NCBI GenBank assembly: GCA_963768655.1
Contig: CAVYIM010000005.1
Coordinates: 64,001-128,000, forward strand
Direction: 5' to 3'
Length of the DNA stretch: 64,000 nucleotides
From: an uncultured Chloroflexia bacterium
GTDB taxonomy: Bacteria; Chloroflexota; Limnocylindria; Limnocylindrales; CSP1-4
Each line of letters opens with the position of its first letter. The stretch's first letter is position 1. Both the position numbers and the translations under genes were made by a program. The notes beneath the pieces are model-generated. The model was given only the letters and a program-made list of their open reading frames with translations, was not told where the DNA came from and made no database searches. Below are positions 34,766 to 49,639 of this stretch, one piece after another.

Positions 34766-37700
34766 TCAACCTAGAGACAATGCCCGCCTCGGTTTGCCCG
34801 GCTCCGGCACCCATTCGCCCAGCGGGCGGACCTCCGCCAGACGCATGCGCAGGTCCGGGTCCAGCGCCTCGGCCGCGGCCACGGCCGTCTCGATGGCGGT
34901 CAGGCACAGGATCCCCTCGGCGGTGGCGGCGAGGCGGATCTCGGCCGCGTCGCGGACCGGGCCGGACTTCGGCGACGGCGTGTTGACCACGAGCCGCACC
35001 GAGCCGCCGGCGATGAGGTCCAGGATGGTGACCTGCCCGTCGCCGGCGTGCTCGCCCACCTTGGCCACGACCTGCGCCTCATGGCCCAGCCTGTGAAGCT
35101 CGGCTGCGGTGCCGGAGGTGGCGGCGAACCGGTAGCCAGCCCGAGCCAGGGCGGCGGCGACGCGCGGCAGCTCCTTCTTGTCCCGGTCCGCGACGGAGAT
35201 CAGCGCCAGCGCCCCGTCGGCGCCCGGCCGGGGCGGGATCAGCGCCGCGCCCTGCATCGCCTTGGCCAGCGCGACTCGCGGGTCGGCATGGATGCCGATG
35301 ACCTCGCCCGTGGACTGCATCCCCGGGCCGACGCTCGGGTCCACGCCGCGGAGCTTGGCGGTGGAGAAGGCCGGCGCCTTGACCGCGACCAGCGGCGGCG
35401 GCTCCAGCAGCCCATTACCCCACCCCATTGCGCGCAACGTCTCGCCCAGGGCAATCCGGACGGCCAGCTTGACCATCGGGACGCCGGTGACCTTGCTCAT
35501 GAACGGCACCGTGCGGCTGGCGCGCGGGTTGACCTCGATCAGGTACACGCCGTCGTCGCGGACGATGAACTGGGCGTTGACCAGGCCGTGGACGTCCAGC
35601 GCCCGCACGATCCGGTCCATCGCGGCGACGATCAGCTCCTGGTCGGGGACCGAGACCGTCTGCGGCGGGAACATCCCGACCGAGTCGCCAGAATGGACGC
35701 CGGCTCTCTCGACGTGTTCGAGCAGGCCCGGGATCAGGACCGACTCGCCGTCGGAGATCGCGTCGACGTCCACCTCGATGCCTTCGAGATAGCGGTCGAT
35801 CCGAACCGGCCGGTCGGGGTCGACGACGGTCGCGCGCGCCAGCTGCTCGACCAGATCGGACGGCGAATAGCTGAAGTCGATTGCCAGGCCGCCGATGACG
35901 AACGACGGTCGAACGATGACCGGGTAGCCGATCCGATCGGCCAGCGCCAGCGCTTCCTCGATCGAGCGCGCCATGCCGCCGTCGGGCTGCGGGATGCCGA
36001 CAGCCTCCACCAGGTTGGCGAAGCGGATGCGATCCTCCGCCTGGTCGATGGTCTCCAGGTTTGCGCCCAGGAGCGGGATACCGGCGGCCGCGAGCGACTC
36101 GGCCAGGTTGAGGGGCGTCTGGCCGCCGAACTGGACGAAGGCGCCGAGCGTCGGGCGGCCGTCCGGCGATTCGGCCTCCACGACCGAGCGAACGCTCTCC
36201 GGATCGAGCGGCTCGAAGTACAGCCGCGAGCTGGCGTCGAAGTCGGTCGAGACCGTCTCGGGGTTCGAGTTGATCATGACGGCCTGCCAGCCCCGTTCGC
36301 GCAACTCCGCCGCGGCCTGGACGGCGCAGTAGTCGAACTCGATCCCCTGCCCTATCCGGACCGGCCCGGAGCCGATGACCAGCGCCGCGGGCCGCTCCAC
36401 CGGCGGCAGCTCCGGCTCGGAGCCGCTGGCAGCGTACGTCGCGTAGAAGTACGGCGTCTCGGCCGCGAACTCCGCGGCGCACGTGTCCACCATCGCGTAG
36501 CCGGGCACAAGGCCGAGCTCCATTCGGGCGAGCCGCACCGCCTCGGCCGTCGCGCCCGGCCCCGCCATCGCCGCCAGCTCGCGGTCCCCGAAGCCGGCCC
36601 GCTTCACGGTCGCGAGGAGAGTGGCCGCCTCATCGTCCCGTGGCTCCGCGATCCGCGCCCCGGCCCGCCGGACCTCGCGCTCCAGCGCGATCGCCCGCTC
36701 GAACTCCCAGAGGAACCACGCCGAGATGCCGGTCACGCCTCGGATCCGCTCCGCCGGCATGCCCCGCCGCAGCAGCGCGAGGATCCGCCACAGCCGCGAG
36801 TCCGAGGGTGCGAGGAACCGCTTGAGCACGATCGGATACGCCATCCGCTCGGCGTGCGCCCTTGCCTCGCAGACCAGGCCGCTGGTATCGACCGTGACGA
36901 ACGCCGGCTCGGCGACCGCGGGCTCCATCAGGTAGTCGAGCGTCGCCTGCCAGCCGGCGTTCTCGGCCAGCCAGCCCGCGCCCGCCTGTTCGAGCGCGCG
37001 GAGGGCCTTGTTCAGCGCCGAGCCGAAGGTTCGGTCGATCGCCATCACCTCGCCGGTCGCCTTCATCTGGCTGCCGAGCGTTCGATCGGCATTGGGGAAC
37101 TTGTCGAACGGGAAGCGCGGCAGCTTGACGACGACGTAGTCGAGGGCCGGCTCGAAGGCCGCGACCGTCGTACCGGTCACGACATTGGGGATCTCCGCCA
37201 GCCGCCGGCCCGCGGCGATCTGGGCCGCAACGCGCGCGATCGGATAACCCGTCGCCTTGCTCGCGAGAGCGGAGGATCGGCTGACGCGCGGGTTGACCTC
37301 GATGACCGCGTATTCGGCGTAGTCCGGGCTCAGGGCGAACTGCACGTTGCAGCCGCCCTCCACGCCGAGCGCCCGAATGATCGCCAGGCTGGCCGAGCGC
37401 AGGCGCTGGTGGACAGGGTCGGGCAGCGTCTGGACCGGCGCGACGACGATCGAGTCGCCGGTGTGGATACCCAGCGGGTCGACGTTCTCCATCGAGCAGA
37501 CGGCGATGCAGGTATCGTCCGCGTCGCGCATGACCTCGTATTCGATCTCCTGCCAGCCCACCAGGCAGCGCTCGATCATGACCTGGTGGATGGGGCTGAG
37601 TCTCAGTCCCGTGCGCGTCCGCTCCCAGTACGCGTCCTCGGTCTCGACGATGCCGCCGCCGGTGCCGCCCAGGGTGAAGGCCGGCCGGATGATCGCCGGC

Positions 37701-38266
37701 AGGCCGATCTCCTGCAGGGCGCGGCGGGCCGCGGCGTCGCGCGCCTCATCGGTCTCACCTTCGACGATGTGGCTCGGCGCATACGGCTGGCCGATGCGGT
37801 CGAGCAGGTCGCGGAACAACTCGCGGTCCTCGGCCATCTCGATCGCCTCGAGCGGCGTGCCGATGAGCCGGACGTTGTACTTGTCCAGGACGCCGGCCTT
37901 GGCCAGCGCCACGGCCAGGTTCAGCCCGGTCTGGCCGCCGAGCCCGGCAAGCAGCCCCTCCGGCCGCTCTTTGGCGATGACCTGCTCGATCGCCTCGACC
38001 GTGAGCGGCTCGAGGTAGACGGCGTCGGCGACCTCGGCGTCGGTCATGATCGTGGCCGGGTTCGAGTTGACCAGGATCGTCCGCACGCCCTCAGCGCGGA
38101 GCGCCCGGCAGGCCTGCGTGCCGGCGTAGTCGAACTCGGCCGCCTGGCCGATGACGACCGGCCCGGAGCCGATGATCAGCGCACTCTTCGGCTTTGGCCG
38201 GTGCGCGCTCGGGGCCGGGTTCGCGGGCACGGGGTATGCGGTGGTCGGCAACGGCGGCTGCCTCAC
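34766..38266 (-). CDS. carB: Carbamoyl-phosphate synthase large subunit
   Basis: GSGPVVIGQAAEFDY, two ATP-grasp domains, EVNPR twice, C-terminal MGS-like domain. Confidence 0.97.
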   Translation of the reverse strand: MRQPPLPTTAYPVPANPAPSAHRPKPKSALIIGSGPVVIGQAAEFDYAGTQACRALRAEGVRTILVNSNPATIMTDAEVADAVYLEPLTVEAIEQVIAKERPEGLLAGLGGQTGLNLAVALAKAGVLDKYNVRLIGTPLEAIEMAEDRELFRDLLDRIGQPYAPSHIVEGETDEARDAAARRALQEIGLPAIIRPAFTLGGTGGGIVETEDAYWERTRTGLRLSPIHQVMIERCLVGWQEIEYEVMRDADDTCIAVCSMENVDPLGIHTGDSIVVAPVQTLPDPVHQRLRSASLAIIRALGVEGGCNVQFALSPDYAEYAVIEVNPRVSRSSALASKATGYPIARVAAQIAAGRRLAEIPNVVTGTTVAAFEPALDYVVVKLPRFPFDKFPNADRTLGSQMKATGEVMAIDRTFGSALNKALRALEQAGAGWLAENAGWQATLDYLMEPAVAEPAFVTVDTSGLVCEARAHAERMAYPIVLKRFLAPSDSRLWRILALLRRGMPAERIRGVTGISAWFLWEFERAIALEREVRRAGARIAEPRDDEAATLLATVKRAGFGDRELAAMAGPGATAEAVRLARMELGLVPGYAMVDTCAAEFAAETPYFYATYAASGSEPELPPVERPAALVIGSGPVRIGQGIEFDYCAVQAAAELRERGWQAVMINSNPETVSTDFDASSRLYFEPLDPESVRSVVEAESPDGRPTLGAFVQFGGQTPLNLAESLAAAGIPLLGANLETIDQAEDRIRFANLVEAVGIPQPDGGMARSIEEALALADRIGYPVIVRPSFVIGGLAIDFSYSPSDLVEQLARATVVDPDRPVRIDRYLEGIEVDVDAISDGESVLIPGLLEHVERAGVHSGDSVGMFPPQTVSVPDQELIVAAMDRIVRALDVHGLVNAQFIVRDDGVYLIEVNPRASRTVPFMSKVTGVPMVKLAVRIALGETLRAMGWGNGLLEPPPLVAVKAPAFSTAKLRGVDPSVGPGMQSTGEVIGIHADPRVALAKAMQGAALIPPRPGADGALALISVADRDKKELPRVAAALARAGYRFAATSGTAAELHRLGHEAQVVAKVGEHAGDGQVTILDLIAGGSVRLVVNTPSPKSGPVRDAAEIRLAATAEGILCLTAIETAVAAAEALDPDLRMRLAEVRPLGEWVPEPGKPRRALSLG

Positions 38267-38393
38267 ACAAAAAGGCCACCGGCCGAGTTGGCGCGGTGGT
38301 TCTCATTGCAGGCGACCATGGACCTCCTCCCCGGCCTCACTGGACCGGTACGCCGGCCTCACAGGACCGGCCGCAAAGGCTGCCCGTAGGTTA
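38263..38393 (-). promoter_or_regulatory. carB leader: tandem PyrR-type loops, 18-aa leader ORF (38263-38319), terminator
   Basis: CCGGTCCTGTGAGGCCGG (38353-38370) and CCGGTCCAGTGAGGCCGG (38331-38348) fit the RUCCNGNGAGGY core; GGAGG SD; MVACNENHRANSAGGLFV; CCACCG/CGGTGG stem plus T5; TAACCT -10. Confidence 0.8.
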
Positions 38394-39393
38394 TCACGAA
38401 GCCAAACGGGTACGTGAACCGCCCTGGGTTCCGTGGAGATCCGATGGGCGTCCGTCAACGAGACCCCGACCAGGTTTCGGCCTGACGTCCCGCGCTTGAG
38501 CGGCGGACCACGGCCGCAACTTCACTTGTCCTGACCGGCCACCGTCCGCTCGAGGGGAGTGGGGCAAACGAAAGTGCCATCCGCTACGTTGTTGTGTCAG
38601 AACTGAGAGCGGAACACCCCGGACGCGTTCCATGAGTGGAGCCTTGTCGCGTCCGGACTCCTCCATCCAGATGAGCCAGCCCCCGCGATCAGCCACGAAG
38701 TAACTGGAGTTGCCCTCGGTATCCACCTGGATCGGCGAAGACCAGCTCGGCTGCCAGACAGTCAAAGCATCAAGCCAGGAGTCGTAGTACGCCTCCCGTT
38801 GCCACCAGGCCACCGTGCCCGAGCCGCAGGCCATTCCATCGATTCCCTTCGATGGCCCATCGGCGGGGTCAGGGCTGATGGCCAGAGTCCTGGCATAGGG
38901 AGCGGCAGCCGCATACAGACTGGTCTGCGAACCACCCGGACGTCTGAGAGCTGGCCTGTGGATCCGCCACCCAGGCCGCCAGCGGACCCTCGGCATTGAC
39001 CTCATAGACCTCCTTGCCAATCTCCTGGGAGCCACTCAGAGGCGTCCAATGCCAGAGGTGCATCTGACCAATCGCGCCGCTATTTGGATCGCCCTTGCCA
39101 GTGGTGTATAGAACGCCGTCCGGCACAAGGGCAAAGTCGTACGGATCGCCGGTGAACCTGATCGTGTCCTGTAGGTTGCCGAGGATGTCCCGGATCTCTA
39201 TCTGCCACTTGCCGCTGGCCAAAGCCTCCAAGAGCGCTATCCGTTGGCCGTCGAACTTGATGCTGTCGAGGTACATTTGCCCGCCGTAGTTCGGCATACG
39301 GTCATGGGCCACCACACTCACTCTATGAGTCGTCAGGTTCATGTCTTTGAGCGACCAGGCAGTGACAGGATGCTGGTCACTGCTCCAGTCGTA

Positions 39394-40882
39394 GAGGATG
39401 TCCCGCTCGTCGTGGAATTTCAGTGAGGGTCGGGTCTCCAGGTTGCTGATCATATCGGTTGGTTGGTAGCGCTCGCCTCGCTTTCGATGTGGAGCTCGCG
39501 CTTCAGCGCAGCGGCAAGAATGGGCAGCTCCCGATAGCCACAGACTCGGCGGAACTGAGCCTCTGCGGCGAGCATCCCAGCGGCGGCCCAGCGCAGCGCC
39601 ATCTCGCCCGACTCCCAGTTCTTCACCCGGCGGGCGTGCGTCTTGACGATCTCGATCATCGATTCCATCGGGTTGGTCGACTCGAGCGTCCTCCAGAGCG
39701 AGCCGCTGATGCCCAGACGCGTCAGGGTGAGCGTGTCGTCGAGCCCCTCGCGCAGCGACGCGGCGGCTCCCGGACGGCTGTGGGCCAGACTGCGGGCCAG
39801 GGAGTGGAGGGCCGCCTTCGCCCTGTCCGGATCTCGCTCGGCCCAGGCGGCCCGAAGCCGGCGCTGGGCGAGCGGTCGTTCGATCTCGGGCAGGTGCTCT
39901 AGAACGTTGCGCTCTTTGTGGCGATGGCAGCGATGGATCGCCACGCCTTTGCCCAAGAAGGTGGGGATGGCCGAACCGATGGCGGAGCCGCCGTCGACGA
40001 CGAAGAGGACGCCTGCGCTTGTGTCCAGACCGCGATCGCGCAAGTCCGCCAGGAGCGCGTTGACCACCGCGCTGTTCTCGGTCGTGCCCTCGACCACGCC
40101 GAGGGGCACCTTGTGGCCGGCGGCGTCGATCCCGAGCGCGCCTACGAGCAGGTGATCGCCCAGGCGAAAGCCATCGAGCATGAGCACGAGGTAGCGGCGG
40201 TCGTCGAGTCTGCGCCCGAGCAGCTCAGCCAGGCGCTCTGCCGTGGCGGCGAGGAAGCGGCGGCTGACGGCGGCGTGGCTGGTCGAGACGGCGGCCTCCT
40301 CGATGGCCTCGCCAACAGGCTCGAGGCCAACCGGATAGTCGCGAGTCGAGAGCCCCGCGAGCATCCGGGCGACGATCCCGTCGGCGAGCAGATCGCTGGC
40401 TCTCGCGGCCTCGTAGGTCGCGAGCGGCAGCTCGGCTGCTCCATCGGCACTTCGCACACGTGGCCGCTCGACGCGGAGTCGGCGGCCGCCCAGGGTCACG
40501 GTTCCGGCTTCACTGCCATGGCGATAGGCAACTCGATCCGCTCGGTGGCGGCCGCGTGGGCCGGCCAGGCCGTCAACCTCAGCCGCCATCAGCTCGTCGA
40601 GGACCTCGAGGCCGACCGCGGTCGAAGCGGCCAGCAGGCCCTCGCGCAGATGGCTCGCGAACGTGGCGAGATGGCCCTCGAGCCGCCCTGTCAGCTCAGC
40701 AGGAAGCTGGTGAACGAGACGGCGAGGTCGGCGGCATCGCTTCTCAGGGCGGGGCCGGACGTGGGACGATGGCATGGGTTCCTCCAGTTCGACTTTCCGG
40801 GTCTCCCGTAGCGTGACAGCTCACGCTCCGGGCTGGAGGACCCTCCCCTCAACTCAAATTCCACGGAACTCGGGACAACCTC
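39394..40882 (-). mobile_element. IS256-family element, copy 1 (1489 bp)
   Basis: Terminal IRs GAGGATGTCCCG/GAGGTTGTCCCG; 8-bp TSD CAGTCGTA at 39386-39393 and 40883-40890. Confidence 0.95.
39450..40775 (-). CDS. IS256-family DDE transposase
   Basis: LMLDG, VVDG, RCHRH (CxxH), STNPMES; same protein as 44573-45898. Confidence 0.93.
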   Translation of the reverse strand: MPSSHVRPRPEKRCRRPRRLVHQLPAELTGRLEGHLATFASHLREGLLAASTAVGLEVLDELMAAEVDGLAGPRGRHRADRVAYRHGSEAGTVTLGGRRLRVERPRVRSADGAAELPLATYEAARASDLLADGIVARMLAGLSTRDYPVGLEPVGEAIEEAAVSTSHAAVSRRFLAATAERLAELLGRRLDDRRYLVLMLDGFRLGDHLLVGALGIDAAGHKVPLGVVEGTTENSAVVNALLADLRDRGLDTSAGVLFVVDGGSAIGSAIPTFLGKGVAIHRCHRHKERNVLEHLPEIERPLAQRRLRAAWAERDPDRAKAALHSLARSLAHSRPGAAASLREGLDDTLTLTRLGISGSLWRTLESTNPMESMIEIVKTHARRVKNWESGEMALRWAAAGMLAAEAQFRRVCGYRELPILAAALKRELHIESEASATNQPI

Positions 40883-41421
40883 CAGTCGTACACATCCTCG
40901 ACCCAGAGGAGGTGGTCGCCCGCTAGCTGCGGCGACCATATCCCGACCCTCGTTCCCTCAGCCGCAGAGGCCTGATACACGACTGCGACCGTTCCCTTCT
41001 GCAGATCTCCATACCAGAGATCGGCCTCGTGATCGGCATCGCGGGCGTCGAAGGCGACCAGGGAGCCATCGTTCGTCAGATCAAGGATCTGGGGGTCGGC
41101 CAATGGGCCTATGTTCCAGCATGCATCGGAGCCCAATGGAATCGACACTTTCTGGAAGACATAGGTGGGGTCAGGCGAGTCGCCACGCGAGTCGCCACAC
41201 CGGGCGCCAGCGGAGGCTGTGGGGAACCCGGTCGCGGAAGCGCCAGGAGTCGCGGTGGCGACAGAGGTCGCGGAAGCGGCTGGCGGGGGCGAGGCGGTGG
41301 GTCGCAGCCCGGACCCACAGGCTGAGACAAGGAAAACGATGGCGAGGGCGCTGACCTTCACCCCGGGCTGCATGTGCAAGGTCTGCCCCGCCCCGGGCGG
41401 ACCTGCAACCCAAAGCCTGGC

Positions 41422-41595
41422 CGGCGAAGCCCGCCAGGAGCGGTGAGCCTGCGATCCCTGCCGTCCCGGCGCTTCAGCTGCGAGCCGACCGCGGAGACGA
41501 AGAAGAGCGCGCCTGCCGTCGGTCCAACGGCAGCCGGCCGCCGCTTTCGGCCGAAGGCCAACCGGTCGCCGAAGGCCGTCTCGTCCGCCGGCCGG
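41422..41595. repeat. Inter-cassette repeat, copy A
   Basis: ATCCCTGCCGTCCCGGCGCTTC...CGGTCCAAC...GGCCGAAGGCC...GCCGAAGGC. Confidence 0.75.
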
Positions 41596-42013
41596 AATCA
41601 TCTTCGCGACTCCAGCTAAGCTCGCCATTCGCGGCCCGAAAAGCTCGTTGCTCCAGGTCACCAGGAAGCATCCCGGCTCCCGATGATTCCCGCCAGATCT
41701 CCTCACGCCGCAGACCCAGTCCACGGCCAATCTTCGTGAGTTCGCCGGCCAACCGGCTCTGTGCGACCTCGGTGTCGTGAGCCGCCTGGGCGCGGAGCCA
41801 GTAGCCATCTGACAGACCGAAGAACCGGCACAGCCGAAGGTCGGTGTCCGCGGTGATCGACCGCCTGCCGGCCACGATTTCGCCAATTCGCTGAGCGGGA
41901 ACGCCGATCTCCTTAGCTAGTCGGTACTGTGAGATGCCCATCGGGCGCAGGAACTCCTGCAGCAGCAACTCACCCGGAGTCACCGGGGGCAATGTCGTCG
42001 TCATCTTCGTCAC
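41474..42013 (-). CDS. higA: HigA antitoxin; probable C-terminal frameshift near 41727 extends the ORF
   Basis: PGELLLQEFLRPMGISQYRLAK...ITADTDLRL...FG...YWL; alternate frame gives PWTGSAA* ending near 41703. Confidence 0.85.
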   Translation of the reverse strand: MTKMTTTLPPVTPGELLLQEFLRPMGISQYRLAKEIGVPAQRIGEIVAGRRSITADTDLRLCRFFGLSDGYWLRAQAAHDTEVAQSRLAGELTKIGRGLGLRREEIWRESSGAGMLPGDLEQRAFRAANGELSWSREDDSGRRTRRPSATGWPSAESGGRLPLDRRQARSSSSPRSARS

Positions 42014-42475: not shown

Positions 42476-42499
42476 GGACGAGGTTGCTCGGCCACGGGG

Positions 42500-42697
42500 C
42501 GGTGAAGCTGGCCCGCAGTGATGAGAGGACAATCCCTGTCGTCCCGGCGCTTCGACTCCGGGCGGGCCGCGGAGGTGATCGAGCGAGCCGCGACGTCGGT
42601 CCAACCGCCTCCTGCCGTCCTGTCGGGCCGAAGGTCAGTCGGTGGCCGGAGGGCGTCCGCCGAAGGCCCTTCCGTCGGACCAATTCGCCGCTTCTGC
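42500..42697. repeat. Inter-cassette repeat, copy B (most complete)
   Basis: CGGTGAAGCTGGCC...ATCCCTGTCGTCCCGGCGCTTC...GTCCAAC(42599)...GTCGGAC(42674)...GCCGCTTCTGC. Confidence 0.75.
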
Positions 42698-44254: not shown

Positions 44255-44335
44255 CCGGACCTCCATACAGCACCTTTTGCTGGTCCTGAGAATAGCACCT
44301 GGTGGCAGGTTTTCGCGGATCTGGAGAGCCGCCTA

Positions 44336-44465
44336 CGGTGAAGCTGGCCAGGGCGGAGATCAAGCGATCCCTGCAATCCCGGCGCTTCGGCTCCGTGCGG
44401 ACCTCGGAGGTGGAGGTCGGCGTGCAGGCGGCGGTCCTGCGGCATCCGGGGGTCCTTTCGGCCTC
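44336..44465. repeat. Inter-cassette repeat, copy C (interrupted by IS256 copy 2)
   Basis: CGGTGAAGCTGGCC...ATCCCTGCAATCCCGGCGCTTC. Confidence 0.75.
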
Positions 44466-45954
44466 GAGGTTGTCCCGAGTTCCGTGGAATTTGAGTTGAG
44501 GGGAGGGTCCTCCAGCCCGGAGCGTGAGCTGTCACGCTACGGGAGACCCGGAAAGTCGAACTGGAGGAACCCATGCCATCGTCCCACGTCCGGCCCCGCC
44601 CTGAGAAGCGATGCCGCCGACCTCGCCGTCTCGTTCACCAGCTTCCTGCTGAGCTGACAGGGCGGCTCGAGGGCCATCTCGCCACGTTCGCGAGCCATCT
44701 GCGCGAGGGCCTGCTGGCCGCTTCGACCGCGGTCGGCCTCGAGGTCCTCGACGAGCTGATGGCGGCTGAGGTTGACGGCCTGGCCGGCCCACGCGGCCGC
44801 CACCGAGCGGATCGAGTTGCCTATCGCCATGGCAGTGAAGCCGGAACCGTGACCCTGGGCGGCCGCCGACTCCGCGTCGAGCGGCCACGTGTGCGAAGTG
44901 CCGATGGAGCAGCCGAGCTGCCGCTCGCGACCTACGAGGCCGCGAGAGCCAGCGATCTGCTCGCCGACGGGATCGTCGCCCGGATGCTCGCGGGGCTCTC
45001 GACTCGCGACTATCCGGTTGGCCTCGAGCCTGTTGGCGAGGCCATCGAGGAGGCCGCCGTCTCGACCAGCCACGCCGCCGTCAGCCGCCGCTTCCTCGCC
45101 GCCACGGCAGAGCGCCTGGCTGAGCTGCTCGGGCGCAGACTCGACGACCGCCGCTACCTCGTGCTCATGCTCGATGGCTTTCGCCTGGGCGATCACCTGC
45201 TCGTAGGCGCGCTCGGGATCGACGCCGCCGGCCACAAGGTGCCCCTCGGCGTGGTCGAGGGCACGACCGAGAACAGCGCGGTGGTCAACGCGCTCCTGGC
45301 GGACTTGCGCGATCGCGGTCTGGACACAAGCGCAGGCGTCCTCTTCGTCGTCGACGGCGGCTCCGCCATCGGTTCGGCCATCCCCACCTTCTTGGGCAAA
45401 GGCGTGGCGATCCATCGCTGCCATCGCCACAAAGAGCGCAACGTTCTAGAGCACCTGCCCGAGATCGAACGACCGCTCGCCCAGCGCCGGCTTCGGGCCG
45501 CCTGGGCCGAGCGAGATCCGGACAGGGCGAAGGCGGCCCTCCACTCCCTGGCCCGCAGTCTGGCCCACAGCCGTCCGGGAGCCGCCGCGTCGCTGCGCGA
45601 GGGGCTCGACGACACGCTCACCCTGACGCGTCTGGGCATCAGCGGCTCGCTCTGGAGGACGCTCGAGTCGACCAACCCGATGGAATCGATGATCGAGATC
45701 GTCAAGACGCACGCCCGCCGGGTGAAGAACTGGGAGTCGGGCGAGATGGCGCTGCGCTGGGCCGCCGCTGGGATGCTCGCCGCAGAGGCTCAGTTCCGCC
45801 GAGTCTGTGGCTATCGGGAGCTGCCCATTCTTGCCGCTGCGCTGAAGCGCGAGCTCCACATCGAAAGCGAGGCGAGCGCTACCAACCAACCGATATGATC
45901 AGCAACCTGGAGACCCGACCCTCACTGAAATTCCACGACGAGCGGGACATCCTC
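44466..45954 (+). mobile_element. IS256-family element, copy 2 (1489 bp, inverted relative to copy 1)
   Basis: Same IRs; 8-bp TSD TCGGCCTC at 44458-44465 and 45955-45962. Confidence 0.95.
44573..45898 (+). CDS. IS256-family DDE transposase
   Basis: 441-aa protein identical to copy 1 in the ORF track. Confidence 0.93.
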   Translation: MPSSHVRPRPEKRCRRPRRLVHQLPAELTGRLEGHLATFASHLREGLLAASTAVGLEVLDELMAAEVDGLAGPRGRHRADRVAYRHGSEAGTVTLGGRRLRVERPRVRSADGAAELPLATYEAARASDLLADGIVARMLAGLSTRDYPVGLEPVGEAIEEAAVSTSHAAVSRRFLAATAERLAELLGRRLDDRRYLVLMLDGFRLGDHLLVGALGIDAAGHKVPLGVVEGTTENSAVVNALLADLRDRGLDTSAGVLFVVDGGSAIGSAIPTFLGKGVAIHRCHRHKERNVLEHLPEIERPLAQRRLRAAWAERDPDRAKAALHSLARSLAHSRPGAAASLREGLDDTLTLTRLGISGSLWRTLESTNPMESMIEIVKTHARRVKNWESGEMALRWAAAGMLAAEAQFRRVCGYRELPILAAALKRELHIESEASATNQPI

Positions 45955-45974
45955 TCGGCCTCGGCCGGTCCCCG

Positions 45975-47850: not shown

Positions 47851-49110
47851 TCACCCCATCCCGCGCAGTCGCCTCGCCAGCTCGGCCGCGTCGAGGTGGA
47901 CCGGCTCGACTCTGCCGACCGTCGGTTCGGGCGCCGTGCCGCCGTGCCGGGCCCGCGCAGCGGAGACGAATCGGTCGAAGACCGCCAGCGCGTCGAGCGG
48001 TCCGGGACCGCCCTCCGGGTGGTATTGCACCGTCTCGATCGGAAGCGTGCGGTGGCGCAGCCCCTCCACCGATCCGTCGTTCAGGTCGATCTGGCTGACC
48101 ACGAAGCCGCTGGCTTCGGGCAGCGTCTCACCGACCACCGTGACCTCGTGGTTCTGAGCCGTGACCTGGACCAGGCCGCTCTCCAGGTCCTTGACCGGGT
48201 GGTTCGCGGCGTGGTGGCCGAACGGCAGGCGCCTCGTGCTTGCGCCGGCGGCCCGCCCGACGATCTGATGTCCCAGGCAGATGCCCAGGAGCGGCCGGCC
48301 GTCGCTGATTGCCGCGCGGGCCAGCGCCACGGGGCCGTCGAGGCGGGCCGGGTCGCCGGGTCCGGGCGAGAAGACGACGCCGTCCACATCCGGGCCGAGC
48401 GCCTCCGCCGCCGTGGCCGTGTGAGGGAGGATCCGCACCCGCGCCCCGCGCCGGCGAAGGCTGCGCACGATGTTCGTCTTCAGGCCGAAGTCGAGAATCA
48501 CGACAAGCGGGCCGCCCTCGGACGGATCGCCTTCGTCGCGCGCGACCGTGGGCGAAACTTCGGCTACGAAGTCCTGATCCTCCCATCGGGGAACCTTGCG
48601 GGCCAGCTCGCGCGCCTCCTGCGGGTCGGCCTGGCCGGGCGCGGTCACGATGGCGCGCAGGCTGCCGCTCGAGCGGAGGTGCCGGGCCAGGGCTCGAGTG
48701 TCGACGCCGGCGATCGCCGGGATGCCCGCCTCGCGCAGCATCGTCGCGAGCTGGCGGGCGTCGTCGAGAACCGCGGCGGTGGCGTTGGCCACGATCAGGC
48801 CCCGCAGCCACGGCCGCTCTGACTGGTCGTCGTAGCGGACGCGGCCGTAGTTGCCGATCAGCGGGTAGGTCATTACGACGAGCTGCCCGGCGTAGCTGGG
48901 ATCGGTGGCGATCTCCTGGTAGCCGGTCTGGCTGGTGTTCACAACGAGGTCGCCCTGTCCGGAGCGCTGCGAGCCGAAGGCGACGCCCGGGAACAGGCGG
49001 CCGTCCTCCAGGGCGAGAAGCGCCGGGCCGTAGTCTCCGATCCGCGGATCGACGACGGCGCTGGCCCGCGGCGGCGGAGGCAGCAGGCGCGTGCGTGGCG
49101 GCTCGGTCAC
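47851..49110 (-). CDS. carA: Carbamoyl-phosphate synthase small subunit
   Basis: TGYQEIATDPSY, SPGPGDP, GICLGHQ, QNH, QYHPE; GTG 49110 overlaps leader stop. Confidence 0.95.
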   Translation of the reverse strand: MTEPPRTRLLPPPPRASAVVDPRIGDYGPALLALEDGRLFPGVAFGSQRSGQGDLVVNTSQTGYQEIATDPSYAGQLVVMTYPLIGNYGRVRYDDQSERPWLRGLIVANATAAVLDDARQLATMLREAGIPAIAGVDTRALARHLRSSGSLRAIVTAPGQADPQEARELARKVPRWEDQDFVAEVSPTVARDEGDPSEGGPLVVILDFGLKTNIVRSLRRRGARVRILPHTATAAEALGPDVDGVVFSPGPGDPARLDGPVALARAAISDGRPLLGICLGHQIVGRAAGASTRRLPFGHHAANHPVKDLESGLVQVTAQNHEVTVVGETLPEASGFVVSQIDLNDGSVEGLRHRTLPIETVQYHPEGGPGPLDALAVFDRFVSAARARHGGTAPEPTVGRVEPVHLDAAELARRLRGMG

Positions 49111-49352
49111 GTGCCGCCCCGGCGTGCGACTACGAAGCGGCCGACCGGAGTGGACGCGGCGACCAGGCGCGCGGCAACGACGCGGCCGGCCCGACTTAGT
49201 GCGACGACGACGCGGCGCGCGGCGCCGACAAAAAAGCCACCGGCCGAACTGGCGCGGTGGTTCTCGTCGCAGGCGACCATGGACCTCCTTCCCGGCCTCT
49301 CTGGACCGGCCCGCCGGCCTCACAGGACCGGCCAAAGGCTGGGCGTAGGTTA
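49107..49352 (-). promoter_or_regulatory. carA leader: tandem PyrR-type loops, 57-aa leader ORF (49107-49280), terminator
   Basis: ~125-bp paralogue of the carB leader; GTCCTGTGAGGC and GTCCAGAGAGGC loops; AAGGAGG SD; MVACDENHRASSAGGFFV...; stem plus T6. Confidence 0.8.
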
Positions 49353-49639
49353 GCACGGCGGACGGAGAGCGGGAGGGAGCGCAGTCTCTCGCCGCCGACC
49401 CGGCGCGGCCCTGAGCCGGCCCGCACGACCTGTGGCTCGACGAGTGCCGCGGCAGTCCGCGCCATGGCTGGAGTCATCCTCCCACAGTCGACTGCCACCT
49501 CCGTCGACCGGGCCTGGCTGGCGGGACGGGTGGAGCCGCTTTCAGGACTCGTTCAGCCTCCGGAGGCTATCGTCTGACTTCGGAACACCAAGAACATCCC
49601 CCTCGGAGACGCCAGTGACGGGGCGTCTTCGCCAGATCG

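Follow-up and report, generated by a model that had tools for sequence, protein, structure and literature searches.

The stretch upstream of carB, the gene for the large subunit of carbamoyl-phosphate synthase, is probably a pyrimidine-control switch in which PyrR decides whether a short leader is translated. In the form that we favour, with a probability of roughly 0.6, it would be a PyrR-gated attenuator of transcription that depends on translation of the leader and has translational coupling built in. From the anatomy and conservation of the sequence, and from the finding of a pyrR gene in the genome, we infer PyrR binding, its effector, termination, ribosomal anti-termination and re-initiation. 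An earlier sequence-only reading of the window (the whole stretch of 64,000 nucleotides that was analysed) had proposed such a hybrid switch, in which a block of leader translation both permits termination and removes the coupling to carB; the results presented here lend support to this proposal, and nothing that could be computed refuted it. The same device is found upstream of the unlinked carA gene; carbamoyl-phosphate synthase, of which only one was found in the assembly, would thus have its two subunits obeying one signal.

Layout of the carB leader and its PyrR-type hairpins

All the parts listed in the sequence-only reading are present, and they are arranged on the minus strand as follows:

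38396-38263, minus strand: carB leader, whole element
38388-38396, minus strand: putative extended -10-like box TGATAACCT (TGnTAnnCT), assigned from its conservation
38375-38379, minus strand: CCUUU, the anti-Shine-Dalgarno strand, forming the 5' side of the PyrR site's lower stem and pairing with GGAGG at 38330-38326
38352-38371, minus strand: PyrR-type hairpin 1, CCGGTCCTGTGAGGCCGG (38370-38353), 7-bp stem, loop CUGUGA
38331-38348, minus strand: PyrR-type hairpin 2, CCGGTCCAGTGAGGCCGG, 6-bp stem, loop CAGUGA, abutting the Shine-Dalgarno
38323-38330, minus strand: leader Shine-Dalgarno GGAGGAGG, which contributes its first five bases as the 3' side of that stem
38263-38319, minus strand: leader ORF MVACNENHRANSAGGLFV, 18 codons plus TGA (ATG 38319-38317, TGA 38265-38263)
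38276-38299, minus strand: putative terminator hairpin CCACCG(C)GCC-AACUC-GGCCGGUGG, within leader codons 7-15
38269-38273, minus strand: U5 run of the putative terminator, read CUU UUU in the leader ORF
34766-38266, minus strand: carB, carbamoyl-phosphate synthase large subunit, 1166 aa, GTG at 38266-38264 (Pfam; NCBIfam NF003671, 1332 bits)

The claims of tandem stem-loops set against a GGAGG Shine-Dalgarno, and of a leader ORF that runs through the putative terminator stem and U-tract, both hold at these positions. So does the claimed overlap of the leader TGA with the carB start: the carB ORF has no start codon ahead of the GTG at 38266-38264, and GTGA is therefore a genuine stop/start overlap. 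The motif [YM]P[VIL]PANPAP upstream of the catalytic core is kept in relatives, which also places the start of carB at or near 38266. The transcript probably begins about 7 nt downstream of the -10-like box.

With at most one mismatch, the motif CCGGTCCNGNGAGGCCGG occurs four times in the window against 0.08 expected, a count reached in 0 of 100 shuffles; two copies lie in the carB leader and the other two upstream of carA. Comparison with the Rfam PyrR model (RF00515), which had been suggested as a check, bears out the loop and the lower stem and falls short on score. Hairpin 2 aligns, in a sub-threshold alignment, to the RF00515 loop ucAGUCCaGaGAGGCUga, and carries the model's conserved loop (A)GUCCaGaGAGGC(U). 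The CCUUU and GGAGG flanks match the model's lower stem CCUUu...AAGG, but enclose two hairpins and not one. At the gathering threshold RF00515 has no match in the window, nor any in the genome at E<=0.001; on the 139-nt stretch 38262-38400 it scores 14.8 bits (E=6.1) against a gathering score of 54. The minimum free energy structure of the twin hairpins as free RNA is one long hairpin, near in energy to the two-hairpin form (-21.9 vs -23.8 kcal/mol), and the CCUUU:GGAGG helix contributes merely -2.2 kcal/mol.

According to the favoured reading, the first 55 or so nucleotides of the RNA would fold into two PyrR-binding hairpins inside the weak CCUUU:GGAGG helix, the 3' strand of which is the leader Shine-Dalgarno. 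When pyrimidine nucleotides are ample, PyrR would sit on the hairpins, lock this helix and block ribosome loading; with no ribosome on the leader, the downstream hairpin would form behind RNA polymerase and stop it at the U-run ahead of carB, and in read-through RNA the carB start would stay buried beside the hairpin. With PyrR off, a ribosome on the leader would cover codons 7-10, where the hairpin has its 5' arm, and prevent termination, then halt at the UGA and re-initiate on the overlapping GUG of carB.

The absence of pyrR from the window, noted previously, is confirmed by the lack of any PF00156 match on this contig. A search of the genome located the gene on contig C4 of the assembly (G000), at about 411.74-412.37 kb, as an NCBIfam NF003549 equivalog (250 bits vs a cutoff of 138). 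The leader of pyrR itself has one PyrR-type hairpin and a Shine-Dalgarno, as well as an ORF of 7 codons that terminates, as ATGA, on the start of pyrR. A TAnnCT box is also seen by eye upstream of pyrR hairpins in other Limnocylindria.

A twin leader before carA and conservation in the genus

The carA gene of the same window is preceded by a leader of the same construction:

49107-49355, minus strand: carA twin leader, with a -10-like box TGCTAACCT at 49355-49347
49331-49314 and 49309-49292, minus strand: hairpins of the carA leader
49290-49284, minus strand: Shine-Dalgarno of the carA leader
49280-49107, minus strand: carA leader ORF, 57 codons, whose TGA overlaps the carA GTG at 49110
49260-49237, minus strand: putative terminator hairpin of the carA leader, with U6 at 49235-49230
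47851-49110, minus strand: carA, carbamoyl-phosphate synthase small subunit (Pfam; TIGR01368, 366.6 bits)

The two genes are unlinked and present in one copy each in the assembly, and the pyr operon on contig C4 has neither. Here, a single carbamoyl-phosphate synthase with split carA and carB would have kept both subunits on one signal through duplication of a whole leader. The carB leader is 94% identical to the carA leader of another genome, vs 87% to its own carA leader; over 132 nt, the two leaders of the window are 89% identical. We tentatively raise a further idea, which on balance we consider rather unlikely: the promoter, twin PyrR boxes, Shine-Dalgarno, leader ORF, terminator and NTGA may form a portable cassette that is copied or swapped between carA and carB, the twin boxes cooperatively clamping a PyrR oligomer and setting transcription and translation of the two unlinked subunit genes in step. 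On this cassette reading the first codons travel along (MRQPPLP for carB, MKQPPFP for carA), and the cassette feeds a different ORF in two genomes.

Within the genus (Chloroflexota, Limnocylindria), leader DNA was matched in 22 of 24 genomes and 41 instances were compiled, 21 upstream of carA, 19 upstream of carB and one truncated (L045, outside the 40 complete leaders). L048 and L051 (both G014) were left out for want of a match to the hairpin pattern, as was L032, a weak match from another family. Alignments A1 and A2 comprise the 29 of the 40 leaders that are free of large insertions. All 39 leaders matched by script have a start codon close to the Shine-Dalgarno (ATG in 34, TTG in 4, GTG in 1) and a TGA stop overlapping NTG; counting L012, the proximal start, the frame, the TGA and the NTGA overlap are found in 40 of 40 complete leaders, which substantiates the expected conservation of Shine-Dalgarno, start codon, frame and overlap in relatives. 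In 8 of the 40 the ORF is extended to 23-57 codons through unconserved sequence and still ends on the carA or carB start. The base preceding the TGA is only G, A or T, so that a start codon is retained, and in the downstream gene codon 2 has A as its first base throughout, though the residue differs (K, T, R, S, N, M). The overlapped start opens the frame of an identifiable carA or carB in 35 of 40 leaders (34 recognised by the motif, the other being L034, whose motif is variant) and leads into another ORF in two. Support from conservation for a translated, coupled leader is thus unusually strong, as it covers all 40 leaders, variable-length extensions included.

The structure is also kept across the 29 aligned leaders. 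The CCUUU:GGAGG helix (helix 1) has 96.5% of cells paired, hairpin 1 has 100% with two pairs changed on both sides, and hairpin 2 has 98.3% with one such pair; the whole 27-pair structure reaches 98.8%, vs 31-54% when partners are slid. Both-side changes affect only four pairs in the whole structure, a number that 0 of 500 shuffles attained. The Shine-Dalgarno bases AGGA (A69, G70, G71, A72) are invariant in 29/29, as are T1, G2, T4, A5, C8 and T9 of the -10-like box.

Sequences from RNA sequencing runs of environmental samples were also consulted. Six runs contained 10-14% of sampled words, and four were compared at 85% likeness. Contigs from relatives span carB and 38266-38401, one of them bridging 38138-38323, and coverage is absent upstream of 38421 because that DNA is unconserved. 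Since these sequences are contigs, possibly of DNA, and reach past the putative promoter, they give no start, end or level, and we draw no conclusion from them.

Putative terminator, coupling and competing explanations

A simple consensus scan of 37800-39000 called neither a terminator nor a two-hexamer promoter; the putative terminator escaped it because the bulged base violates the scan's stem rule. Folding gives a hairpin of 9 bp with one bulged base and a 5-nt loop, followed by CC and U5, and it is the minimum free energy structure in the six full leaders listed. In both copies in the window the hairpin is followed by U5-6, and the genus leaders listed mostly have at least four consecutive T (exceptions: L020 and L024, with TTTCT). 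Fold z-scores are modest in this DNA of 69% G+C (-1.7, -2.3, -1.1, -1.8 and -1.6). Eight of the nine terminator pairs never vary within the genus, and its stem shows no covariation there.

The most probable alternative, itself a minority possibility, is purely translational control with the leader ORF as a relay, in effect the mycobacterial mode with coupling added: PyrR would hide the leader Shine-Dalgarno, carB would be served only by ribosomes that complete the leader and re-initiate or that melt the hairpin over the carB start, and the hairpin and U-run would be no regulated terminator. The NTGA overlap in every one of the 40 leaders suits this view, as does the lack of a canonical Shine-Dalgarno for carB, to which the hairpin's 3' arm offers just a GGUGG. 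So do the sister genera of the family, where the hairpin and leader ORF persist while the U-run is often degenerate (e.g. GGTGGGTTCATTGTG). The hairpin is absent in 4 of 20 sister-genus carA loci, and in two of these, L164 and L165, the PyrR-type hairpins and Shine-Dalgarno appear by eye to stand directly on the carA start. The same direct arrangement was seen by eye at several pyrR genes of the class, and a crude script run on 80 pyrR loci from other phyla clearly flagged 7 as direct and 10 as having an upstream ORF, most being unclassified or having no hairpin found. The decay of the U-run and the hairpin-less loci suggest that the hairpin may serve coupling rather than termination. Against a lack of any transcriptional layer in the genus itself stand the strong U-run (T125, T126 and T128 invariant in 29/29 leaders, T124 and T127 conserved in at least 90%), the GC-rich hairpin of -16.4 kcal/mol and the intrinsic-terminator geometry, the RF00515 alignment placing the hairpin at 38276-38299 at its own terminator part. 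Purely translational control is, moreover, compatible with the PyrR-gated attenuator and denies its transcriptional layer only. The graded forms within the family (Shine-Dalgarno on carA, leader ORF and hairpin with no U-run, full terminator) could reveal how an attenuator evolves.

In attenuation of the Bacillus type, bound PyrR would favour an anti-antiterminator, the rival of the terminator would be an RNA antiterminator, and the ORF would be there by chance. Such a mechanism would account for PyrR-type hairpins upstream of a terminator, which is the RF00515 arrangement. We regard it as improbable. Among 38 leaders (L040 and L041, which have no -10 box in the excised stretch, are not among them) no conserved RNA antiterminator was found: before the 3' arm of the terminator is made, its 5' arm belongs to no conserved helix, with a mean pairing probability of 0.55 and partners that differ between leaders. 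The spacer between hairpin 2 and the terminator (Shine-Dalgarno, start codon and 15 variable nt) is free in sequence and fixed in frame; leader codons 2-6 vary while their length is kept, and the two leaders that are 6 nt shorter remain in frame. The persistence of ORF, start and NTGA throughout the genus, extended leaders included, also argues against an incidental ORF, as the RF00515 score far under threshold does against a Bacillus-type element. With no conserved RNA antiterminator, the ribosome is the only evident anti-terminating agent. Kinetics weigh against the PyrR-gated attenuator: the U-run ends just 54 nt from the AUG, and between the leader ATG at 38319 and the hairpin there is no U-rich polymerase pause tract, so that very fast ribosome loading or polymerase pausing would be required.

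We also considered, and set aside as very improbable, that the leader additionally senses arginine, a ribosome that stalls on an Arg codon within the terminator's 5' arm holding the terminator open and so bringing carbamoyl-phosphate synthase, of which only one was found, under joint arginine and pyrimidine control. Codon 9 is CGN (Arg) in 39/39 genus leaders, its bulged third base being a synonymous C, A or T, another Arg often follows two codons on, and carA and carB are single in the assembly. The CG of codon 9, however, lies within the stem and its third base is the bulge, so that RNA structure accounts for the codon, and the frequent CGCGA loop can also be read as a GNRA-type tetraloop closed by C-G. 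Some sister-genus leaders appear by eye to encode His-His at this position, with a compensated stem; a single codon is weak for an attenuator, and the genome has two ArgR-like genes. Least probable of all is a PyrR-independent attenuator like E. coli pyrL-pyrBI, in which UTP-dependent polymerase pausing sets the distance to the ribosome and the hairpins are structural only: a leader ORF that crosses the terminator and ends beside the structural gene speaks for it, but there is no U-rich pause tract, the hairpins are positioned on the Shine-Dalgarno and have loops of the PyrR consensus, and pyrR is present with the same box in its own leader.

Comparison with known PyrR systems

In Bacillus and other Bacillota, PyrR acts through an RNA antiterminator switch, by way of anti-antiterminators. 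The leaders described here share with the pyr attenuators of Bacillus subtilis (RF00515) the consensus of the hairpin loop, a lower stem of the CCUUU...AAGG kind and a PyrR equivalog in the genome, and have a putative terminator downstream; they differ in having no RNA antiterminator, a lower stem whose 3' strand is the Shine-Dalgarno, two hairpins per enclosure and a model score below threshold. In the pyrL-pyrBI system of E. coli, a ribosome translating the leader ORF through the terminator sustains transcription, and UTP-dependent polymerase pausing is the signal, with no PyrR. Translation of a leader ORF through a putative terminator would be a shared feature, and the pause tract is a difference. 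In mycobacteria, PyrR represses translation directly by blocking initiation. For Mycobacterium smegmatis, PyrR-dependent translational repression was reportedly described by Fields and Switzer (2007, J Bacteriol 189:6236). The likeness lies in a PyrR hairpin that would occlude a ribosome-binding site, most directly in the forms seen by eye before carA in the two sister-genus loci and at certain pyrR genes in the class; in the genus, by contrast, the occluded site would be that of a leader ORF crossing a putative terminator, and the structural gene would be reached via a stop/start overlap.

The closest parallel is the pyr operon of Thermus strain ZO5, for which Van de Casteele et al. (1997, J Bacteriol 179:3470) are said to have described a leader peptide ORF whose ribosome-binding site carries a PyrR box and which runs across the terminator as far as the first gene's start; in their model PyrR was reportedly proposed to block leader translation, thereby allowing termination. 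A full-text search of the accessible papers found none describing PyrR acting via a leader peptide, which does not make the idea unpublished; it was reportedly proposed for Thermus, and the hybrid switch is therefore not new in kind. New here are the twin hairpins and the duplication of the leader on the split carA and carB, the kind of mechanism being known, and no general principle is changed. The sequence-only reading had overlooked this reported precedent, together with the pairing of CCUUU with the Shine-Dalgarno, the twin leader of carA and the sub-threshold Rfam score.

Set beside the reported design of the Thermus ZO5 leader, the likeness is close: hairpin 2 ends at 38331 and the Shine-Dalgarno (38330-38323) supplies the box's lower stem with its 3' strand, while the leader ORF spans the hairpin and U-run and its stop overlaps the gene start in all 40 genus leaders. 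The differences are the two tandem boxes closed by a helix of Shine-Dalgarno and anti-Shine-Dalgarno, the control of carA and carB as two separate units instead of a pyrR-pyrB-pyrC operon, and a host in the Chloroflexota (Limnocylindria). These leaders would widen the known range of PyrR control by providing, in an uncultured Chloroflexota class, a clean comparative case of the third wiring proposed for Thermus.

Architecture of the carB and carA leaders

The carB gene (NF003671, 1332 bits) is preceded on the minus strand by a compact leader.

Features of the carB leader, with the position of carA
38396-38388, minus strand: -10-like box TGATAACCT
38379-38375, minus strand: CCUUU
38371-38352, minus strand: hairpin 1 (GCCGGUC / CUGUGA / GGCCGGC)
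38348-38331, minus strand: hairpin 2 (CCGGUC / CAGUGA / GGCCGG)
38330-38323, minus strand: Shine-Dalgarno (SD) GGAGGAGG
38319-38317, minus strand: ATG of the leader ORF
38319-38263, minus strand: 18-codon leader ORF MVACNENHRANSAGGLFV
38299-38276, minus strand: candidate terminator hairpin CCACCG(C)GCC-AACUC-GGCCGGUGG
38273-38269, minus strand: U5 run
38265-38263, minus strand: TGA of the leader ORF
38266-38264, minus strand: carB GTG, first start codon of the 1166-aa carB ORF
47851-49110: carA

The sequence-only reading had described tandem stem-loops abutting an SD, an ORF crossing the terminator stem and U-tract, and a TGA overlapping the carB GTG, and all three are found at the positions listed. 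The window contains four matches to the hairpin pattern CCGGTCCNGNGAGGCCGG versus 0.08 expected, a number reached in none of 100 shuffles, and the candidate terminator hairpin has a folding energy of -16.4 kcal/mol; every detail of the observation is therefore confirmed. The distance from the AUG to the end of the U-run is just 54 nt, with no visible pause tract, and carB has no canonical SD, the nearest SD-like sequence (GGUGG) lying within the 3' arm of the terminator hairpin. At the carB leader a simple consensus scan called neither a terminator nor a promoter, and fold z-scores at the leaders were modest. Metatranscriptome contigs yielded no usable information on the leader.

A second copy of the leader, unnoticed in the sequence-only reading, precedes carA (hairpin matches at 49331-49292) and shows 87-89% identity to the carB leader (89% over 132 nt). 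Its ORF has no stop past the U-run and continues for 57 codons to a TGA (49109-49107) overlapping the carA GTG. The two genes, each found once in the assembly (88.6% complete), are 9.6 kb apart and separated by two inverted, identical insertion sequences of 1493 nt (39393-40885 and 44463-45955, spacing 3577 nt), each encoding a 441-aa Mutator-family transposase; the pair resembles a composite transposon. The segment between them contains an HTH (Cro/C1-type) gene (41474-42013), and a 78-nt direct repeat occurs three times in diverged form (67-100% identity) inside it and at its edge (41419-41496, 42497-42574 and 44332-44409). A 38-nt stretch around CGGCTCCAGAGAGGTCGC has three genomic copies (contig C4 at 530268, contig C5 at 45042 and 46779 of the window's assembly, G000) and is probably part of a repeated element.

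The carB leader of the window shares 94% identity with a carA leader from another genome (locus L010), versus 87% with its own carA leader, and in several genomes carB starts with MRQPPLP, resembling the carA start MKQPPFP (38245-38266 versus 49089-49110 in the window, and relatives' loci). These likenesses suggest leader swapping or gene conversion between carA and carB.

Candidate PyrR sites and the pyrR gene

The Rfam model for the PyrR binding site (RF00515) has no match in the window at its gathering score, nor in the genome at E<=0.001. Run on the 139-nt carB-leader stretch alone, it gives 14.8 bits versus the threshold of 54, yet in this sub-threshold alignment hairpin 2 falls on the conserved loop of the model (ucAGUCCaGaGAGGCUga) and the downstream hairpin and U-run on its terminator. 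The lower stem of the model (CCUUu...AAGG) also has a counterpart in the carB leader (CCUUU...GGAGG), which encloses both hairpins and whose 3' strand is the SD of the leader ORF. Across 29 aligned leaders, the 27-pair structure is 98.8% paired versus 31-54% with slid partners, and four pairs have changed on both sides, which none of 500 shuffles matched. RNAalifold independently predicted both hairpins and the terminator. Of the nine terminator pairs, eight show no variation within the genus and are thus uninformative on structure. In free RNA, the twin hairpins can refold into a single long hairpin close to them in energy (-21.9 versus -23.8 kcal/mol), and the SD helix contributes only -2.2 kcal/mol.

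The earlier reading had noted no pyrR in the window; a PyrR equivalog is encoded elsewhere in the genome, on contig C4 (NF003549, 250 bits versus a cutoff of 138). It heads a pyrR-pyrB-pyrC-pyrK-like-pyrD operon that includes neither carA nor carB. Its leader (C4, ~411.68-411.74 kb; L002 / L135) contains a single PyrR-type hairpin, CCGGCACGGTGAGGCCGG, flanked as in the car leaders by CCTTT (CCUUU in RNA) and GAAGGAGG, and then a 7-codon ORF (MRGSENR; GTG instead of ATG start in close relatives) ending in a TGA that overlaps the ATG of pyrR; this leader shows no terminator. At pyrR loci of other genomes three arrangements were read by eye upstream of the gene: a hairpin and SD directly at the pyrR start; a hairpin, SD and short ORF whose stop overlaps that start (e.g. 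L061, L065, L070, L072, L077); and, in a Zixibacteria MAG (L120), a 28-codon ORF crossing a terminator and ending ATGA on pyrR. A crude classifying script agrees for the loci cited. Given the matching features and the presence of pyrR, the twin hairpins are therefore treated as PyrR-type candidate binding sites by features, not as RF00515 members by score.

Conservation of the leader ORF

Of 24 same-genus genomes, 22 have matches to the leader DNA, usually two each; the other two genomes are 93% and 69% complete. Among 41 compiled leaders (21 before carA, 19 before carB, one truncated remnant), all 39 that fit the parsing pattern have a start codon right behind the SD (ATG 34, TTG 4, GTG 1) and a TGA stop overlapping an NTG start; with L012, one base off the pattern, the tally becomes 40 of 40. 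The base ahead of the TGA is G, A or T, always preserving the start codon, and the second codon of the downstream gene always begins with A while its amino acid varies. Codons 2-6 are free in sequence and kept in length, both shorter leaders having exactly six bases less. Eight leaders without a stop past the U-run stay open for 23-57 codons across sequence that is not conserved, yet their stops again fall on the gene start. At 35 of the 40 loci the overlapped start reads in frame into a recognisable carA or carB; at three the frame breaks later, which assembly errors may explain, and two (L016 in G016, L050 in G022) enter an unrelated ORF between leader and carB, whose ATG overlaps the leader TGA, so that the cassette feeds another gene first. 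Within the peptide only the residues specified by the hairpin arms are conserved. Taken together, these traits are difficult to account for without translation of the leader and coupling of its termination to the start of translation in the downstream gene.

Several variants were also observed: a truncated leader (L045, G005 contig C45) with the -10 box and both hairpins, lacking SD, ORF and terminator and followed by unrelated DNA; an extra ~35-nt hairpin (AGUCAAAG...CUUUGACU) between the PyrR-type hairpins (L028, L031, L047, L049, L050, L052); three tandem hairpins (L022); and further degenerate hairpin copies (L023, L040, L041, L046).

A covariance model of the leader matched 55 of 151 genomes, a tally that includes the unpublished genome G137: the matches are strong within the family (38 of 44 genomes) and only weak in other families of the class (3/6, 2/49 and 11/50 in f2, f3 and f4). 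All 20 loci from other genera precede carA. By eye, most retain the leader ORF and hairpin, and some leaders of a sister genus have a compensated stem, CCCACC(A)CGCC/GGCGGGTGGG.

A proposed switch acting through leader translation

Bound PyrR would lock the SD within the lower stem and block ribosome loading; on the ribosome-free leader the hairpin would form, ending transcription at the U-run, and carB would not be initiated by coupling on any RNA that escaped termination. When PyrR is not bound, a ribosome translating the leader would keep the hairpin from forming, halt at the UGA and re-initiate at the carB GUG. The same switch is proposed for carA. The terminator 5' arm corresponds to leader codons 7-10, which would be covered by a ribosome that had translated the first few codons of the ORF. 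When 38 leaders were folded up to the terminator loop, i.e. as nascent RNA before the 3' arm, pairing of the 5' arm had a mean probability of 0.55 and involved partners that differed among leaders; there is thus no sign of a conserved antiterminator helix. Comparative evidence supports the switch put forward in the sequence-only reading as the probable mechanism. It is weakened by the low RF00515 score, the lack of a terminator or promoter call, the modest z-scores, the invariance of the terminator pairs, the alternative fold of the twin hairpins, the short stretch between AUG and U-run, and the findings in other genera.

Control might instead be purely translational, PyrR hiding the leader SD and carB being reached by coupling, with the hairpin and U-run not forming a regulated terminator. 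At the loci of other genera degenerate U-runs are frequent, and the hairpin is absent from 4 of the 20, in two of which (L164, L165) the SD is placed right at the carA start, as read by eye; coupling, in addition to or in place of termination, may therefore be the role of the hairpin. For this reason the purely translational alternative is retained, unlikely as we consider it.

Among the papers accessible to full-text search, none was found to describe PyrR acting via a leader peptide. The logic proposed for the carB leader is that of the model for the Thermus ZO5 pyr leader, which Van de Casteele and colleagues reportedly put forward in 1997. New here are the twin PyrR-type boxes closed by an SD/anti-SD helix, the duplication of the whole cassette before unlinked carA and carB, and the signs of leader exchange between these two genes.
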